Of a DNA stretch of 64,000 nucleotides, positions 3,401-59,838 are shown piece by piece (the first letter of the stretch is position 1; each line of letters opens with the position of its first letter). The stretch comes from Escherichia coli (GTDB lineage Bacteria; Pseudomonadota; Gammaproteobacteria; Enterobacterales; Enterobacteriaceae): NCBI RefSeq assembly GCF_003334765.1, contig NZ_QOWT01000008.1; one strand, written 5' to 3'. The position numbers and the translations under genes are program-made. The notes under the pieces were generated by a model that saw only the letters and a program-made list of their open reading frames with translations, had not been told where the DNA came from and ran no database searches.

Positions 3401-4978
3401 ATGACGGAAAACATTCATAAGCATCGCATCCTCATTCTGGACTTCGGTTCTCAGTACACTCAACTGGTTGCGCGCCGCGTGCGTGAGCTGGGTGTTTACT
3501 GCGAACTGTGGGCGTGGGATGTGACAGAAGCACAAATTCGTGACTTCAATCCAAGCGGCATTATTCTTTCCGGCGGCCCGGAAAGTACTACTGAAGAAAA
3601 CAGTCCGCGTGCGCCGCAGTATGTCTTTGAAGCAGGCGTACCGGTATTCGGCGTTTGCTATGGCATGCAGACCATGGCAATGCAGTTGGGCGGTCACGTT
3701 GAAGCCTCTAACGAACGTGAATTTGGCTACGCGCAGGTTGAAGTCGTAAACGACAGCGCACTGGTTCGCGGTATCGAAGATGCGCTGACCGCAGACGGTA
3801 AACCGCTGCTCGATGTCTGGATGAGCCACGGCGATAAAGTTACCGCTATTCCGTCCGACTTCATCACCGTAGCCAGCACCGAAAGCTGCCCGTTTGCCAT
3901 TATGGCTAACGAAGAAAAACGCTTCTATGGCGTACAGTTCCACCCGGAAGTGACTCACACCCGCCAGGGTATGCGCATGCTGGAGCGTTTTGTGCGTGAT
4001 ATCTGCCAGTGTGAAGCCCTGTGGACGCCAGCGAAAATTATCGACGATGCTGTAGCTCGCATCCGCGAGCAGGTAGGCGACGATAAAGTCATCCTCGGCC
4101 TCTCTGGTGGTGTGGATTCCTCCGTAACCGCAATGCTGCTGCACCGCGCTATCGGTAAAAACCTGACTTGCGTATTCGTCGACAACGGCCTGCTGCGCCT
4201 CAACGAAGCAGAGCAGGTTCTGGATATGTTTGGCGATCACTTTGGTCTTAACATTGTTCACGTACCGGCAGAAGATCGCTTCCTGTCAGCGCTGGCTGGC
4301 GAAAACGATCCGGAAGCAAAACGTAAAATCATCGGTCGCGTTTTCGTTGAAGTATTCGATGAAGAAGCGCTGAAACTGGAAGACGTGAAGTGGCTGGCGC
4401 AGGGCACCATCTACCCTGACGTTATCGAATCTGCGGCGTCTGCAACCGGTAAAGCACACGTCATCAAATCTCACCACAACGTGGGCGGCCTGCCGAAAGA
4501 GATGAAGATGGGCCTGGTTGAACCGCTGAAAGAGCTGTTCAAAGACGAAGTGCGTAAGATTGGTCTGGAGCTGGGCCTGCCGTACGACATGCTGTACCGT
4601 CACCCGTTCCCGGGACCAGGCCTTGGCGTTCGTGTTCTGGGTGAAGTGAAGAAAGAGTACTGTGACCTGCTGCGCCGTGCTGACGCCATCTTCATTGAAG
4701 AACTGCGTAAAGCGGACCTGTACGACAAAGTCAGCCAGGCGTTCACTGTGTTCCTGCCGGTACGTTCCGTTGGCGTAATGGGCGATGGTCGTAAGTATGA
4801 CTGGGTTGTCTCTCTGCGTGCTGTCGAAACCATCGACTTTATGACCGCACACTGGGCGCATCTGCCGTACGATTTCCTCGGTCGCGTTTCCAACCGCATT
4901 ATCAATGAAGTGAACGGTATTTCCCGCGTGGTGTATGACATCAGCGGCAAGCCGCCAGCTACCATTGAGTGGGAATGA
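3401..4978 (+). CDS. guaA: GMP synthase (glutamine-hydrolysing)
   Basis: 525-aa [29 protein letters not shown]...; GATase plus ATP-PPase (SGGVDSS) motifs; ends ...TIEWE. Confidence 0.95.
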
Positions 4979-5625: not shown

Positions 5626-6144
5626 TTAGCTCTTTTCAGGACATTTGGTATTTGGCTGAATACGCGTTTCGTTATACGTCGTGGTAATAACAACGGCTAA
5701 ACCTGTCGTAAACTGGCACTCTTTACCCACCTGGGTAGAGGTATACACTTTGGTGCCTTCCTTATAGGTTAAAGAAACACCTTCCACTAAGGTTTTATCA
5801 TTCACCATAGAACCCGCTGCCGCGCCTACAGCTCCGCCGCCAACTGCACCTGCCGTCGTTCCGGAATTGCTGCCAGACCCGACGTTGTGGCCGATAACAC
5901 CGCCAGCGACTGCGCCAATAAGCGCGCCGAAGGCTTGTGCGTTCCGTTTATTTTGGGAGTTGTCTACGGCAACTTTTGCGGGAAGAATGGAAATAATATT
6001 AACGGTTTTAGTTTCTTGTTTGGTATTCAGTTGATCGGTTTGATAAACATCGGCAGCATGATCGTCAGCATTTGACTGGCATCCTGCCAGAGTGAATGAC
6101 GCTAACATTGCCACAGGCAGAAGACATTTTTTAAATTTCATCAC
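5626..6144 (-). CDS. yfgH: Outer-membrane lipoprotein with glycine-zipper domain, YfgH
   Basis: 172-aa ORF; lipobox LAGC at the end of the signal peptide; Gly-rich GxxxG repeat segment. Confidence 0.85.
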   Translation of the reverse strand: MMKFKKCLLPVAMLASFTLAGCQSNADDHAADVYQTDQLNTKQETKTVNIISILPAKVAVDNSQNKRNAQAFGALIGAVAGGVIGHNVGSGSNSGTTAGAVGGGAVGAAAGSMVNDKTLVEGVSLTYKEGTKVYTSTQVGKECQFTTGLAVVITTTYNETRIQPNTKCPEKS

Positions 6145-6454
6145 TATTCCTTGTTATACACATTACGAAAAATAAGACATTTAAGATCATCAAAAGAGGA
6201 AAGTAAATGTATTGCGTATAAAGGGATAGATTAAATTTATTAAAATTCACGCAGGGAATAATTTATAAAAATATATCATCACAACATATATATTAATTTT
6301 ATATTTATTTCGCAGCCAAACAGGATAAACATCAGTCAGGATAAAGACGTAAAATTTAAGATGAAAGAATATCTGCCGCTTTGATAATCCCAAACAGCAA
6401 AAGCATCCGACAGCGAAGTGCCGTTATGTTCTGTGAAAGTGGAGAAGGTAACCG

Positions 6455-6646
6455 CTAACGTTGTACCGGTGATTCGACGGAGAGTGTGGATTGCTGAGCT
6501 TCTTTTTTGCTCTGATGGTGCTGCCAGGCACCGACGGACGAGTAGATAAAACGGCCAAAGAAGAAGATAAAGCTGATGAGCAGTACGATACGGGTCATGC
6601 GACTGTTAAATCGGTGTCGTTTTCGCATACTGGTTGCCTGACTCAC
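6455..6646 (-). CDS. yfgG: Small single-pass membrane protein YfgG (63 aa)
   Basis: 63-aa ORF MSQATSMRKRHRFNSRMTRIVLLISFIFFFG... with one hydrophobic helix. Confidence 0.7.
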   Translation of the reverse strand: MSQATSMRKRHRFNSRMTRIVLLISFIFFFGRFIYSSVGAWQHHQSKKEAQQSTLSVESPVQR

Positions 6647-6856
6647 AAAAGGTTCCTTGAAGTATGTCCCACGCTGTGGACGGTACTTACATTAAGGCAC
6701 AACAGGACAAAATGGTCAATTCTTCGTTATGTAAAAAAGCGTCAGTGGATACATATTTTAATGTTATGGAAGTTAATTTAATTATTTACAATGATGATGT
6801 AATAATGATGAATTAACATGATAAACGTAATAATTCATTAATCAGGGTTATTTTGT

Positions 6857-6870
6857 TTGATATATATCAA
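6857..6870 (+). promoter_or_regulatory. FNR-type box TTGATATATATCAA upstream of pdeF
   Basis: Perfect match to TTGAT-N4-ATCAA, about 130 bp upstream of the pdeF ATG in an AT-rich divergent region. Confidence 0.6.
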
Positions 6871-6997
6871 TTGGTACTTTCATATGACACTTAGAATCAA
6901 TGCTCTCTATAGTGATGAATAATCATCATTCGAAGTCAGGTGGGATGCCTGTCTGAATACACCTCCTTCAGGATGTGGGGGATTCTGCTGAGCATCT

Positions 6998-9241
6998 ATG
7001 AAACTGAATGCAACTTATATAAAAATACGTGATAAATGGTGGGGGCTTCCGCTGTTCCTGCCTTCTTTAATCTTGCCCATTTTCGCCCACATTAATACTT
7101 TCGCGCATATTTCTTCCGGTGAGGTTTTTCTCTTTTATCTGCCTCTGGCACTGATGATCAGCATGATGATGTTTTTCAGCTGGGCGGCATTGCCAGGGAT
7201 CGCCTTAGGGATTTTTGTCCGCAAATATGCAGAGCTGGGTTTTTACGAAACGCTATCATTAACGGCTAATTTTATTATCATTATCATTCTCTGTTGGGGC
7301 GGTTACAGGGTCTTTACTCCCCGGCGTAACAACGTTTCACATGGTGATACCCGTTTAATTTCCCAGCGTATATTCTGGCAGATTGTGTTTCCTGCAACGC
7401 TGTTTCTGATACTTTTCCAGTTTGCTGCATTTGTAGGATTACTGGCGAGCAGAGAAAATCTGGTCGGTGTCATGCCTTTTAACCTCGGGACTTTAATCAA
7501 TTATCAGGCCTTACTGGTGGGTAATCTGATCGGTGTCCCGCTGTGCTACTTCATCATTCGGGTAGTGCGAAATCCATTTTATTTACGTAGCTATTATTCG
7601 CAATTAAAACAGCAGGTTGATGCCAAAGTCACCAAAAAAGAGTTCGCGCTCTGGCTACTGGCATTAGGTGCTTTATTGTTGCTGTTATGCATGCCGTTAA
7701 ATGAAAAAAGCACAATTTTTAGCACCAATTATACCTTGTCATTATTGCTGCCCCTGATGATGTGGGGAGCGATGCGCTATGGTTATAAGCTGATTTCGCT
7801 GCTCTGGGCGGTCGTGTTGATGATCAGCATCCACAGCTATCAAAATTACATTCCCATTTATCCTGGCTATACCACGCAGCTGACCATAACCTCCTCCAGT
7901 TATCTGGTATTCTCTTTTATTGTCAATTATATGGCTGTACTGGCAACCCGTCAGAGAGCGGTAGTCAGACGCATTCAGCGGCTTGCGTATGTGGACCCGG
8001 TGGTTCATCTGCCAAATGTTCGCGCCCTGAATCGCGCGTTGCGTGATGCCCCCTGGTCTGCGCTTTGTTATTTACGCATCCCTGGCATGGAAATGCTGGT
8101 TAAGAACTATGGCATCATGCTGCGGATTCAATACAAGCAAAAACTTTCTCACTGGCTGTCACCCTTGCTGGAACCGGGTGAAGATGTTTATCAGCTTTCG
8201 GGTAACGATCTCGCGCTGCGACTGAATACAGAATCGCACCAGGAGCGCATTACCGCACTGGATAGCCATCTCAAGCAATTTCGTTTCTTTTGGGATGGCA
8301 TGCCGATGCAACCGCAGATTGGCGTCAGTTACTGCTATGTGCGCTCGCCAGTGAATCATATCTACCTGCTGCTGGGAGAGCTAAATACGGTCGCCGAACT
8401 TTCCATCGTGACCAACGCCCCGGAAAATATGCAGCGTCGCGGGGCAATGTATTTGCAACGCGAATTGAAAGATAAAGTCGCGATGATGAATCGACTACAG
8501 CAGGCGCTGGAACACAACCATTTTTTCCTGATGGCCCAGCCGATTACCGGTATGCGTGGTGATGTTTACCATGAAATTCTTCTGCGCATGAAAGGTGAGA
8601 ATGATGAACTGATCAGCCCCGATAGCTTCTTGCCGGTCGCGCACGAATTTGGTTTATCGTCGAGTATCGACATGTGGGTCATTGAGCATACGCTGCAATT
8701 TATGGCTGAAAACAGAGCGAAGATGCCCGCTCACCGTTTTGCTATTAATCTGTCTCCAACCTCGGTATGTCAGGCTCGTTTTCCTGTTGAAGTCAGTCAG
8801 TTGCTGGCTAAATATCAGATTGAAGCGTGGCAACTTATTTTTGAAGTCACCGAAAGTAATGCTCTGACCAATGTTAAGCAGGCGCAAATCACCTTGCAGC
8901 ATCTTCAGGAATTAGGCTGCCAGATTGCGATTGATGATTTCGGCACCGGCTACGCCAGCTATGCGCGGCTTAAAAATGTGAATGCCGATCTGCTTAAAAT
9001 TGACGGCAGTTTTATCCGCAATATTGTGTCAAATAGTCTGGATTATCAGATAGTGGCATCGATTTGCCACCTGGCGCGAATGAAGAAAATGCTGGTAGTG
9101 GCAGAGTACGTTGAAAACGAAGAGATCCGCGAGGCGGTGCTCTCTTTGGGGATCGATTATATGCAGGGTTATCTTATTGGTAAGCCGCAGCCGTTAATTG
9201 ATACGCTGAATGAAATCGAACCCATTCGCGAAAGTGCCTGA
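6998..9241 (+). CDS. pdeF: Cyclic-di-GMP phosphodiesterase PdeF (YfgF): MASE1 membrane domain, degenerate GGDEF, EAL domain
   Basis: 747-aa ORF; multiple N-terminal TM helices; C-terminal EAL domain. Confidence 0.9.
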   Translation: MKLNATYIKIRDKWWGLPLFLPSLILPIFAHINTFAHISSGEVFLFYLPLALMISMMMFFSWAALPGIALGIFVRKYAELGFYETLSLTANFIIIIILCWGGYRVFTPRRNNVSHGDTRLISQRIFWQIVFPATLFLILFQFAAFVGLLASRENLVGVMPFNLGTLINYQALLVGNLIGVPLCYFIIRVVRNPFYLRSYYSQLKQQVDAKVTKKEFALWLLALGALLLLLCMPLNEKSTIFSTNYTLSLLLPLMMWGAMRYGYKLISLLWAVVLMISIHSYQNYIPIYPGYTTQLTITSSSYLVFSFIVNYMAVLATRQRAVVRRIQRLAYVDPVVHLPNVRALNRALRDAPWSALCYLRIPGMEMLVKNYGIMLRIQYKQKLSHWLSPLLEPGEDVYQLSGNDLALRLNTESHQERITALDSHLKQFRFFWDGMPMQPQIGVSYCYVRSPVNHIYLLLGELNTVAELSIVTNAPENMQRRGAMYLQRELKDKVAMMNRLQQALEHNHFFLMAQPITGMRGDVYHEILLRMKGENDELISPDSFLPVAHEFGLSSSIDMWVIEHTLQFMAENRAKMPAHRFAINLSPTSVCQARFPVEVSQLLAKYQIEAWQLIFEVTESNALTNVKQAQITLQHLQELGCQIAIDDFGTGYASYARLKNVNADLLKIDGSFIRNIVSNSLDYQIVASICHLARMKKMLVVAEYVENEEIREAVLSLGIDYMQGYLIGKPQPLIDTLNEIEPIRESA

Positions 9242-9279: not shown

Positions 9280-12892
<3,613 letters not shown>

Positions 12893-14818: not shown

Positions 14819-15015
14819 GACTGCTTTACACAACCTTTTTGCACGTCTTTTCCCCAGGCGCGCGGCGAAAGAAGACTTGTGCCAGGGTAAAGGTTAGTTT
14901 TCGGATGGAATAATCTTCTTTCATAACCATCTGAATATAAAATAACTTTATCTCAAACCGTTATCATTTTGACTAAAGTCAACGAAAAGAATATTGCCGC
15001 CTTGAAGAAAGGAGG

Positions 15016-43201: not shown

Positions 43202-44329
43202 TCAGGCGACGAGCTGTTCCATGATACGTTGATACATACGGGCAAGTAGCTGCAGGTCGGCAGCGTTCACACATTCATTAATTTTATGAATAGTGGCATT
43301 GACCGGCCCGAGTTCCACCACCTGCGCCCCCATGCGGGCAATAAAGCGCCCGTCGGACGTTCCGCCTGTGGTCAGTAGCTGCGGTTTAATTTCATTATAG
43401 TGCTCAACCGCGTTAACGACCGCATCCACCAGTTTACCGCGCGCGGTCAAAAATGGCTGCCCGGAAAGCCACCAATCCACCGTATAGCGCAGTTGATGTT
43501 TTTCAAGCAGGGCAAGCACCTGCGCTTTGATCATCTCATCAGTCAGTTCGGTGCTGAAGCGGAAGTTAAACTGCACAAACAGTTCACCCGGAATAACGTT
43601 GTTACTGCCCGTTCCCGCCTGAATATTGGCAATCTGCATACTGGTCGCCGGGAAGAATTCATTGCCCTGATCCCACTCAATAGCCACTAATTCATTAAGG
43701 AAAGGTGCTGCGCGATGTACCGGATTGTCAGCCAGATGTGGGTAGGCAACATGCCCCTGAACGCCATGAATGGTAAGGTTGCAGGTTAATGATCCGCGAC
43801 GACCATTTTTCACCACATCACCTACCACTTCGATACTCGACGGTTCGCCAACCAGGCAGTAATCGAGACGCTCATTACGTGCCATTAACGCTTCGACGAC
43901 TTTTACCGTACCGTTGTGGGCACTGGCTTCTTCATCAGAGGTGATCAGAAATGCCAGTCGCCCCGTATGGTTGGGATGTTGTGCGACAAAACGTTCTGCC
44001 GCCACCACCATCGCCGCCAGCGAGCCTTTCATATCTGCCGCACCGCGCCCGAATAACATGCCGTCACGAATGGTGGGTTCAAACGGGGGATTGATCCAAC
44101 GATCGGCGTCGCCAGGCGGCACCACGTCGGTATGCCCGGCAAAGGCTAACGTTTCACCCTGCCCACGCCATGCCCAAAAATTCTGCGTATCGGCAAAGTC
44201 CATGCGTTCAACGGTAAAACCGATCGCCTGCAAACGTTCAATCAACAAAGCCTGGCATCCTGCATCATCAGGACTCAGGGAAGGGCGGCGAATAAGCTGT
44301 TGTGTCAGCTCAATAACCGGGCACGACAT
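43202..44329 (-). CDS. dapE: Succinyl-diaminopimelate desuccinylase
   Basis: 375-aa [29 protein letters not shown]...; M20 peptidase family. Confidence 0.95.
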
Positions 44330-53158: not shown

Positions 53159-54202
53159 ATGCGCTATCGCATTTTCCTTCTCTTTTTTTTCGCTTTGTTG
53201 CCGACGTCTTTGGTGTGGGCGGCACCAGCGCAACGGGCGTTTTCCGACTGGCAGGTCACCTGTAATAACCAAAATTTCTGCGTGGCGCGTAATACGGGCG
53301 ATCATAATGGACTGGTGATGACCCTGAGCCGCAGCGCCGGGGCGCATACCGATGCCGTTTTACGTATTGAGCGCGGCGGATTGAAGTCGCCGGAGGCGTC
53401 AGAAGGGGAGATAGCGCCACGGCTGCTGTTAGATGGCGAGCCGTTGGCGTTAAGTGGTGACAAGTGGCGGATTTCACCATGGTTATTAGTAACCGATGAT
53501 ACGGCAACCATCACCGCGTTTTTGCAGATGATTCAGGAAGGGAAGGCAATCACCTTACGCGATGGCGATCAGACCATTTCTCTGAGTGGCTTAAAAGCAG
53601 CGTTGTTGTTTATTGATGCTCAGCAAAAGCGCGTTGGCAGTGAAACCGCGTGGATCAAGAAAGGGGACGAACCGCCGCTCAGCGTACCGCCCGCGCCTGC
53701 GCTGAAAGAGGTCGCGGTGGTTAACCCAACGCCGACGCCACTCTCACTCGAAGAACGCAACGATTTGCTGGATTATGGAAACTGGCGGATGAATGGTCTG
53801 CGCTGCTCGCTTGATCCATTGCGTCGTGAGGTGAATGTCACTGCGCTGACTGATGATAAAGCGCTGATGATGATTAGCTGTGAGGCAGGGGCCTATAACA
53901 CCATTGATTTGGCATGGATTGTGTCGCGTAAAAAGCCACTAGCTTCGCGCCCGGTTCGGTTGCGTTTGCCGTTCAACAACGGTCAGGAGACGAATGAACT
54001 GGAACTGATGAACGCAACATTTGATGAGAAATCGCGTGAACTGGTGACCTTAGCGAAAGGGCGCGGATTAAGCGATTGTGGCATTCAGGCGCGCTGGCGC
54101 TTTGACGGTCAGCGTTTTCGCCTGGTGCGTTACGCCGCAGAACCCACCTGCGATAACTGGCATGGGCCAGACGCCTGGCCCACGTTGTGGATCACCCGTT
54201 AA
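53159..54202 (+). CDS. ypfG: Periplasmic DUF1176-family protein YpfG
   Basis: 347-aa ORF with signal peptide MRYRIFLLFFFALLPTSLVWA. Confidence 0.85.
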   Translation: MRYRIFLLFFFALLPTSLVWAAPAQRAFSDWQVTCNNQNFCVARNTGDHNGLVMTLSRSAGAHTDAVLRIERGGLKSPEASEGEIAPRLLLDGEPLALSGDKWRISPWLLVTDDTATITAFLQMIQEGKAITLRDGDQTISLSGLKAALLFIDAQQKRVGSETAWIKKGDEPPLSVPPAPALKEVAVVNPTPTPLSLEERNDLLDYGNWRMNGLRCSLDPLRREVNVTALTDDKALMMISCEAGAYNTIDLAWIVSRKKPLASRPVRLRLPFNNGQETNELELMNATFDEKSRELVTLAKGRGLSDCGIQARWRFDGQRFRLVRYAAEPTCDNWHGPDAWPTLWITR

Positions 54203-57558: not shown

Positions 57559-59838
57559 ATGGATGACCAGTTAAAACAAAGTGCACTTGATTTCCATGAA
57601 TTTCCAGTTCCAGGGAAAATCCAGGTTTCTCCAACCAAGCCTCTGGCAACACAGCGCGATCTGGCGCTGGCCTACTCACCAGGCGTTGCCGCACCTTGTC
57701 TTGAAATCGAAAAAGACCCGTTAAAAGCCTACAAATATACCGCCCGCGGTAACCTGGTGGCGGTGATCTCTAACGGTACGGCGGTGCTGGGGTTAGGCAA
57801 CATTGGCGCGCTGGCAGGCAAACCGGTGATGGAAGGCAAGGGCGTTCTGTTTAAGAAATTCGCCGGGATTGATGTATTTGACATTGAAGTTGACGAACTC
57901 GACCCGGACAAATTTATTGAAGTTGTCGCCGCGCTCGAACCAACCTTCGGCGGCATCAACCTCGAAGACATTAAAGCGCCAGAATGTTTCTATATTGAAC
58001 AGAAACTGCGCGAGCGGATGAATATTCCGGTATTCCACGACGATCAGCACGGCACGGCAATTATCAGCACTGCCGCCATCCTCAACGGCTTGCGCGTGGT
58101 GGAGAAAAACATCTCCGACGTGCGGATGGTGGTTTCCGGCGCGGGTGCCGCAGCAATCGCCTGTATGAACCTGCTGGTAGCGCTGGGTCTGCAAAAACAT
58201 AACATCGTGGTTTGCGATTCAAAAGGCGTTATCTATCAGGGCCGTGAGCCAAACATGGCGGAAACCAAAGCCGCATATGCGGTGGTGGATGACGGCAAAC
58301 GTACCCTCGATGATGTGATTGAAGGCGCGGATATTTTCCTGGGCTGTTCCGGCCCGAAAGTGCTGACCCAGGAAATGGTGAAGAAAATGGCTCGTGCGCC
58401 AATGATCCTGGCGCTGGCGAACCCGGAACCGGAAATTCTGCCGCCGCTGGCGAAAGAAGTGCGTCCGGATGCCATCATTTGCACCGGTCGTTCTGACTAT
58501 CCGAACCAGGTGAACAACGTCCTGTGCTTCCCGTTCATCTTCCGTGGCGCGCTGGACGTTGGCGCAACCGCCATCAACGAAGAGATGAAACTGGCGGCGG
58601 TACGTGCGATTGCAGAACTCGCCCATGCGGAACAGAGCGAAGTGGTGGCTTCAGCGTATGGCGATCAGGATCTGAGCTTTGGTCCGGAATACATCATTCC
58701 AAAACCGTTTGATCCGCGCTTGATCGTTAAGATCGCTCCTGCGGTCGCTAAAGCCGCGATGGAGTCGGGCGTGGCGACTCGTCCGATTGCTGATTTCGAC
58801 GTCTACATCGACAAGCTGACTGAGTTCGTTTACAAAACCAACCTGTTTATGAAGCCGATTTTCTCCCAGGCTCGCAAAGCGCCGAAGCGCGTTGTTCTGC
58901 CGGAAGGGGAAGAGGCGCGCGTTCTGCATGCCACTCAGGAACTGGTAACGCTGGGACTGGCGAAACCGATCCTTATCGGTCGTCCGAACGTGATCGAAAT
59001 GCGCATTCAGAAACTGGGCTTGCAGATCAAAGCGGGCGTTGATTTTGAGATCGTCAATAACGAATCCGATCCGCGCTTTAAAGAGTACTGGACCGAATAC
59101 TTCCAGATCATGAAGCGTCGCGGCGTCACTCAGGAACAGGCGCAGCGGGCGCTGATCAGTAACCCGACAGTGATCGGCGCGATCATGGTTCAGCGTGGGG
59201 AAGCCGATGCAATGATTTGCGGTACGGTGGGTGATTATCATGAACATTTTAGCGTGGTGAAAAATGTCTTTGGTTATCGCGATGGCGTTCACACCGCAGG
59301 TGCCATGAACGCGCTGCTGCTGCCGAGTGGTAACACCTTTATTGCCGATACATATGTTAATGATGAACCGGATGCAGAAGAGCTGGCGGAGATCACCTTG
59401 ATGGCGGCAGAAACTGTCCGTCGTTTTGGTATTGAGCCGCGCGTTGCTTTGTTGTCGCACTCCAACTTTGGTTCTTCTGACTGCCCGTCGTCGAGCAAAA
59501 TGCGTCAGGCGCTGGAACTGGTCAGGGAACGTGCACCAGAACTGATGATTGATGGTGAAATGCACGGCGATGCAGCGCTGGTGGAAGCGATTCGCAACGA
59601 CCGTATGCCGGACAGCTCTTTGAAAGGTTCCGCCAATATTCTGGTGATGCCGAACATGGAAGCTGCCCGCATTAGTTACAACTTACTGCGTGTTTCCAGC
59701 TCGGAAGGTGTGACTGTCGGCCCGGTGCTGATGGGTGTGGCGAAACCGGTTCACGTGTTAACGCCGATCGCATCGGTGCGTCGTATCGTCAACATGGTGG
59801 CGCTGGCCGTGGTAGAAGCGCAAACCCAACCGCTGTAA
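57559..59838 (+). CDS. maeB: NADP-dependent malic enzyme (malic enzyme domain fused to PTA-like domain)
   Basis: 759-aa [26 protein letters not shown].... Confidence 0.95.

Follow-up and report, generated by a model that had tools for sequence, protein, structure and literature searches.

FNR-activated promoters and the published control of yfgF

Class II promoters activated by FNR, among them those of narG, nirB, dmsA, and yfiD/grcA, carry a binding site at about −41.5, where the FNR dimer overlaps the −35 region, and have no −35 element of their own. Respiratory operons with promoters of this class are strongly induced, unlike pdeF (formerly yfgF), in which a site of perfect consensus is combined with a weak and condition-dependent output (low temperature, stationary phase, and relief from H-NS). 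Expression of yfgF reportedly peaks at 28°C and in stationary phase, which would fit the idea that nucleoid proteins silence the promoter.

The E. coli yfgF promoter, as described in PMC3718329 by the laboratory in which yfgF was characterized, contains an FNR box of the form TTGAT--ATCAA at −41.5 and the −10 hexamer TAGAAT (Lacey, Partridge & Green, 2010), and the Salmonella yfgF promoter is given there as TTGAC--ATCAA with TACAAT (PMC3718329). FNR is entered as an activator of yfgF under anaerobiosis in a curation paper of the RegulonDB type. Binding in vivo has been reported in two studies: the 14-mer TTGATATATATCAA is a predicted site with a PatSer score of 16.08 and an FNR ChIP-seq peak, for which yfgF is the estimated target (Myers et al., 2013, Tables S5 and S6), and ChIP in the DISTILLER study shows FNR bound at the yfgF/yfgG spacer. 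The PdeF protein is undetectable in aerobic cultures, which has been attributed in the literature to anaerobic induction of its gene.

The site called "yfgF/yfgG" by Myers et al. (2013) is the identical 14-mer, and their data add two conditions under which its output differs. The peak was accompanied by no FNR-dependent change in expression in glucose minimal medium (Table S9), and a yfgF aerobic/anaerobic ratio of 0.23, or 4.3-fold anaerobic induction, was recorded in the hns stpA double mutant only (Table S11), with an FNR peak of 1.68 in that mutant versus 0.35 (Myers et al., 2013). The presence of H-NS in the yfgG-pdeF spacer has also been flagged by Shimada et al. Given the unchanged expression in glucose minimal medium and the restriction of induction to the hns stpA mutant, the FNR site is necessary for output but does not suffice under every condition.

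The element ties the sensing of oxygen by FNR to the turnover of c-di-GMP and, through it, to motility, cell-surface remodelling, and peroxide tolerance, a link between oxygen and c-di-GMP that has been established since 2010, with confirmation from genome-wide ChIP in 2013. The pdeF FNR switch analyzed below is a re-discovery of this characterized element, which was already known, and the checks that such a prediction calls for (anaerobic reporter fusions with and without fnr, FNR ChIP, and mapping of the transcription start) are already published.

The pdeF-yfgG locus and its FNR box

The DNA analyzed here, referred to as the window, is a 64-kb stretch of a K-12-like E. coli chromosome, and its yfgG-pdeF spacer is 100% identical to that of E. 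coli DH1 (a K-12 derivative). Both locus and sequence are those of the E. coli K-12 yfgF promoter, with no difference from that published element (Lacey, 2010, Microbiology 156:2873). The genes around the site are arranged as follows:

3401-4978, + strand, guaA
5071-5610, − strand, yfgI
5626-6144, − strand, yfgH
6455-6646, − strand, yfgG coding sequence (63 aa, DUF2633, Ni/Co stress response protein; open reading frame list and RefSeq)
6998-9241, + strand, pdeF (formerly yfgF) coding sequence (747 aa, MASE1-GGDEF-EAL c-di-GMP phosphodiesterase; open reading frame and RefSeq)
9280-10860, − strand, ppx

Precomputed Pfam domains for PdeF comprise MASE1 and EAL, and a phenotype in nickel and cobalt tolerance has been described for yfgG (PMC6338753). 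The two genes are divergent and separated by a spacer of 351 bp, inside which the box is located. The spacer is 66% A+T as a whole and 75% between 6740 and 6930, and the window is 48% A+T. The initial annotation, which was made from the sequence alone and placed the site in an AT-rich spacer shared divergently by pdeF and yfgG, was right in the gene names as well as in their arrangement. A 50-aa "hypothetical protein" is annotated by PGAP/RefSeq inside the spacer (6664-6816, + strand), where it overlaps the yfgG promoter; this open reading frame is probably spurious, the longest equivalent in most other genera spanning 4-30 codons.

Three features, of which the third follows from published geometry, define the pdeF promoter on the + strand:

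6857-6870, + strand, FNR binding site TTGATATATATCAA, palindromic, centered at 6863.5, consensus match 10/10
6892-6897, + strand, −10 hexamer TAGAAT of the FNR-dependent pdeF promoter, beginning 21 nt past the box
~6905, + strand, probable pdeF transcription start, placed by adding 41.5 to 6863.5 on the basis of the published geometry, as described in PMC3718329

Reading bases 6857-6870 directly from the window confirms the perfect FNR box that had been claimed there, and scanning of both strands returned this exact TTGAT-N4-ATCAA as the single match within the 64 kb. Published coordinates were converted to window positions by w = 6870 − (coordinate − 2627088), a map that was validated with two other FNR sites: guaB/xseA (2632240) and upp/purM (2618976) were found at 1705-1718 and 14969-14982, exactly as predicted. 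Both of these sites (guaB/xseA, TTGATCTCGCTCAC, − strand; upp/purM, TTGACTTTAGTCAA, − strand) thus also lie within the window, and both are predicted and occupied in ChIP-seq (Myers et al., 2013, PLoS Genet 9:e1003565). Allowing one mismatch, four FNR boxes were found in the window, the perfect box included, versus 2.2 expected; the other three (43493-43506, 53613-53626, and 57587-57600) are FNR-like boxes whose number is not above chance.

As a motif count alone, the bare FNR box is only weakly unusual, because dinucleotide-preserving shuffles of the window, which contain 0.11 exact matches on average, yield at least one exact match in 11 of 100 cases. The same figure, together with the 75% A+T of the surrounding DNA and the finding that FNR in vivo occupies fewer than half of its predicted sites (Myers et al., 2013), speaks for a palindrome that arose by chance in AT-rich DNA, or for a CRP site, with no role in oxygen control. 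The case against chance rests on the geometry of the promoter and on its conservation, motif count aside.

Architecture and conservation of the pdeF promoter

The layout of the site is almost certainly that of a class II FNR-activated promoter (−41.5) reading into pdeF. Three sequence hallmarks of such promoters are present, namely an inverted repeat, a box-to-(−10) spacing of 21 nt, and the absence of a −35 element: the position at which a −35 would stand with a 17-nt spacer reads AATTGG, and comparable non-matches occupy it in all orthologues. The implied start at ~6905 gives pdeF a leader of 93 nt. A "constitutive" promoter with the hexamers ATGACA and TATAGT at an 18-nt spacing has been predicted in this spacer (Shimada, 2014). 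That candidate (6884-6913) was rejected as the main pdeF promoter, its hexamers having no conservation beyond Escherichia, unlike the TAnAAT at 6892-6897.

Conservation was followed through 26 orthologous pdeF loci from Escherichia spp., E. fergusonii, Salmonella, Citrobacter, Enterobacter, Phytobacter, Kluyvera, and metagenomic relatives, representing at least six genera. A PdeF scan of species-representative genomes supplied the loci of Escherichia spp., Enterobacter, Phytobacter, and Kluyvera; a protein search with contig look-ups added Salmonella, E. fergusonii, three Citrobacter lineages, and further relatives; and a metagenome scan contributed three further pdeF loci. The box is present with no or one mismatch in all 26 loci, with half-sites that read TTGAT or TTGAC on one side of the N4 and ATCAA or GTCAA on the other, and in every locus (26/26) it is followed after exactly 21 nt by TAnAAT, with the 21-nt spacer and the flanks largely divergent. 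An ungapped, box-anchored comparison of seven divergent loci gave the same picture, the half-sites and the −10 making up nearly all invariant columns. The box lies 124-174 nt upstream of the start of the PdeF match or the called gene start in the 26 loci, so that its distance to the annotated or matched start of pdeF varies by ~50 nt. At least six genera of enterobacteria share the box, the 21-nt spacing, and the lack of a −35.

The promoter of Salmonella Enteritidis shares the box position of −41.5 and the spacing to the −10 with that of E. coli and differs from it in one half-site substitution (TTGAC) and in TACAAT instead of TAGAAT (PMC3718329). The Salmonella locus among the 26 has TTGACTTAAATCAA, 21 nt, and TACAAT.

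Within the species, the 91-bp promoter core was found at ≥95% identity in 5,407 of 5,426 complete E. coli genomes, and at ≥99% identity to the window in only 1,549 of the 5,407. Among four divergent E. coli strains that were sampled, substitutions occur at 6812, 6875, and 6900, all of them outside the box and the −10. Base 6875, between the box and the −10, is T in the window and A in the four sampled divergent strains as well as in other Escherichia species.

Retention of box, spacing, and −10 in 26/26 loci with divergent flanks argues against a chance palindrome, as does occupancy of the site in ChIP-seq (Myers et al., 2013). The form of the half-sites separates FNR from CRP, whose half-site pattern TGTGA/TCACA is replaced by TTGA/TCAA in the window and in all 26 orthologues; since the half-sites are always the FNR-specific TTGA and never GTGA, the form used by CRP (26/26 loci), the element belongs to FNR and not to CRP. 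Published work also shows expression that depends on FNR, and the combined ChIP and reporter data of the literature already refute a chance or CRP site, which we consider extremely improbable.

We therefore read the 14-mer as the FNR site of the class II FNR-dependent pdeF (yfgF) promoter, with a probability of about 95%. The exact site, the 21-nt distance, the absent −35, and the cross-genus conservation were established in the present analysis, and the literature supplies the occupancy by FNR in vivo, the mapping of the start, and the dependence of expression on FNR and anaerobiosis. The oxygen- and FNR-responsive control of c-di-GMP turnover through pdeF that the initial annotation had proposed agrees with the published class II promoter, with the curated activator entry, and with the ChIP-seq peak. 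According to the proposed mechanism, FNR carrying its [4Fe-4S] cluster would dimerize without oxygen and bind the palindrome centered 41.5 bp upstream of the pdeF start (~6905), where it would overlap the missing −35 element and recruit RNA polymerase to the −10 hexamer TAGAAT, and the PdeF phosphodiesterase would as a result be made mainly under anaerobic or micro-aerobic conditions. The very AT-rich spacer may in addition be partly silenced by H-NS/StpA, which would make the output dependent on the growth condition.

The divergent gene yfgG

On the other side of the spacer, a separate core promoter (6691-6719, − strand) reads toward yfgG:

6719-6714, − strand, −35 hexamer TTGACC of the yfgG core promoter
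6696-6691, − strand, −10 hexamer CTTAAT, after a 17-nt spacer
~6683, − strand, yfgG transcription start

Identical yfgG hexamers, TTGACC and CTTAAT, have been predicted by Shimada (2014). In a spacer alignment and a promoter-anchored view, TTGACC is invariant in 19/19 loci; its distance to CTTAAT is 17 nt in 18 of these and 18 nt in one metagenomic locus (L159). A sigma-S ChIP-seq study places the yfgG start at 2627275 (PMC4447067), which maps to ~6683 in the window, 7-8 nt past the yfgG −10, and puts the center of the FNR box at about −180.

The initial annotation had also extended FNR control, with a hedge, to yfgG, which would require a single site that acts in both directions and directly controls this gene too. 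A perfect palindrome in a shared spacer is what such a site would look like, and yfgG was placed with high confidence in an FNR module by DISTILLER, with FNR binding confirmed by ChIP; its aerobic/anaerobic ratio of 0.45 corresponds to ~2.2-fold higher expression anaerobically (Myers et al., 2013, Table S12), and in 19/19 loci from several genera the box and the yfgG −35 stand 135-137 nt apart despite the divergence of the sequence between them. ChIP, however, cannot separate two divergent targets, and Myers et al. (2013) assigned the peak to yfgF and do not have yfgG in their tables of FNR-dependent operons (S8 and S10). The architecture weighs against the extension as well: a center at about −180 is far outside the positions known for activation by FNR (−41.5, and ~−61 to −93 for class I), and comparison of the orthologous loci revealed no conserved −10-like hexamer toward yfgG at spacers of 20-22 nt, so that a mirrored class II yfgG promoter was rejected. 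We thus find direct control of yfgG by FNR unsupported and unlikely, and take the site to serve pdeF.

ArcA was considered as a source of the anaerobic yfgG signal and received no support, yfgF/yfgG being absent from the ArcA ChIP-seq supplements (PMC3798270).

Several further features were observed upstream of yfgG. Conserved blocks are found within 6729-6768 (− strand): CTGACG-N-TTTTTTACAT stands directly upstream of the yfgG −35, and ATAACAT lies at about −80, where it forms part of a perfect 14-bp palindrome in Kluyvera (ACATTAATTAATGT) and reads ACATATTTTAATGT in E. coli. In E. coli SCZE5 (NZ_CP051222.1), an IS1A element is inserted at ~6727, just upstream of the yfgG −35; the insertion moves the FNR box ~0.8 kb away from the yfgG promoter and thereby provides a natural test of coupling between the two.

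Conserved hairpins in the pdeF leader

Within the spacer, conservation peaks not at the FNR box but in a stretch of the pdeF leader at ~6935-6957, GTCAGGTGGGATGCCTGTCTGAA. Two predicted hairpins are found in this part of the leader:

6934-6954, + strand, pdeF leader hairpin 1, AGUCAGGU-GGGAU-GCCUGUCU, with GGA in the 5-nt loop, nearly invariant across genera
6962-6981, + strand, pdeF leader hairpin 2, CCUCC-UUCAGGAUGU-GGGGG, with a stem that varies among genera and GGA almost always in the loop

Hairpin 1, with a loop of GGGAU or UGGAU, is 100% paired in 18/18 sequences (alignments A1 to A3 and single-sequence folds). Hairpin 2 occurs in all 18 leaders with stems that include CCUCC/GGGGG, CCCC/GGGG, CCCUC/GAGGG, AAACCCU/AGGGUUU, AUACCC/GGGUAU, and CCCAC/GUGGG, and shows compensatory changes at four pairs. 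In a MAFFT alignment of the leaders, which is not structure-aware, 88% of cells pair, versus 22-50% when the partners are slid. Changes on both sides of a pair were counted in 10 cells, a number reached by 0 of 500 shuffles, with the qualification that relatedness inflates such counts. The loop of hairpin 1 contains the first GGA (6943-6945) in 18/18 sequences, and that of hairpin 2 contains the second (6971-6973) in 16/18, with the GGA abutting the loop in one further sequence. The two GGAs are 28 nt apart, within the pattern of at least two loop GGAs at distances of 10-63 nt that is found in CsrA-bound leaders, and the E. coli loop 2, UUCAGGAUGU, contains a CsrB-like CAGGAUG motif. To judge from sequence, the paired GGA-loop hairpins would resemble CsrA binding sites, which makes them a lead and not a result.

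A scan of 6350-7150 against Rfam at permissive thresholds gave two chance-level matches (E = 2.3 and 2.9) and none for the pdeF leader. Supplementary CsrA CLIP-seq and RNA-seq data for E. coli and Salmonella do not contain the gene, either as yfgF/pdeF (PMC5694010) or as yfgF/STM2503 (PMC6347204); if the cultures in those studies were aerobic, as we assume, this absence says little, because pdeF is barely expressed aerobically. When metagenomes were scanned with the 15-mer CAGGTTGGATGCCTG, three of the 80 loci listed were pdeF loci (L145, L157, and L159) and the rest were chance matches. Since the matches listed outside pdeF were at chance level, the scan gave no evidence for the leader motif as a dispersed element.

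Two other roles for the leader were rejected. A mini-open reading frame, ATG CCT GTC TGA, loses its ATG in two loci (L205 and L206) and is not conserved in length, and a function of hairpin 2 as an intrinsic terminator or attenuator does not suit the U-run, which is short or absent in most genera (e.g., GGGGUAUCC in Kluyvera). Long-range pairing between the leader GGAUGC and the GCAUCU beside the start codon was also considered; both are invariant, which leaves no covariation possible.

As far as could be found in the literature, the leader hairpins and the fixed yfgG spacing, which are two side observations of this analysis, are undescribed. The constant distance of 135-137 nt that separates the FNR box from the invariant yfgG promoter in every genus examined gives a hint that the spacer may be organized as one nucleoprotein unit. 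A speculative reading, to which we give a minor but real chance, is that the leader would impose a CsrA-type post-transcriptional checkpoint on FNR control and that the spacer would act as a single nucleoprotein unit, formed with H-NS or a different factor, by way of which an effect of FNR on yfgG from about −180 could be possible. If this were true, the Csr system would be linked to an anaerobic c-di-GMP phosphodiesterase.
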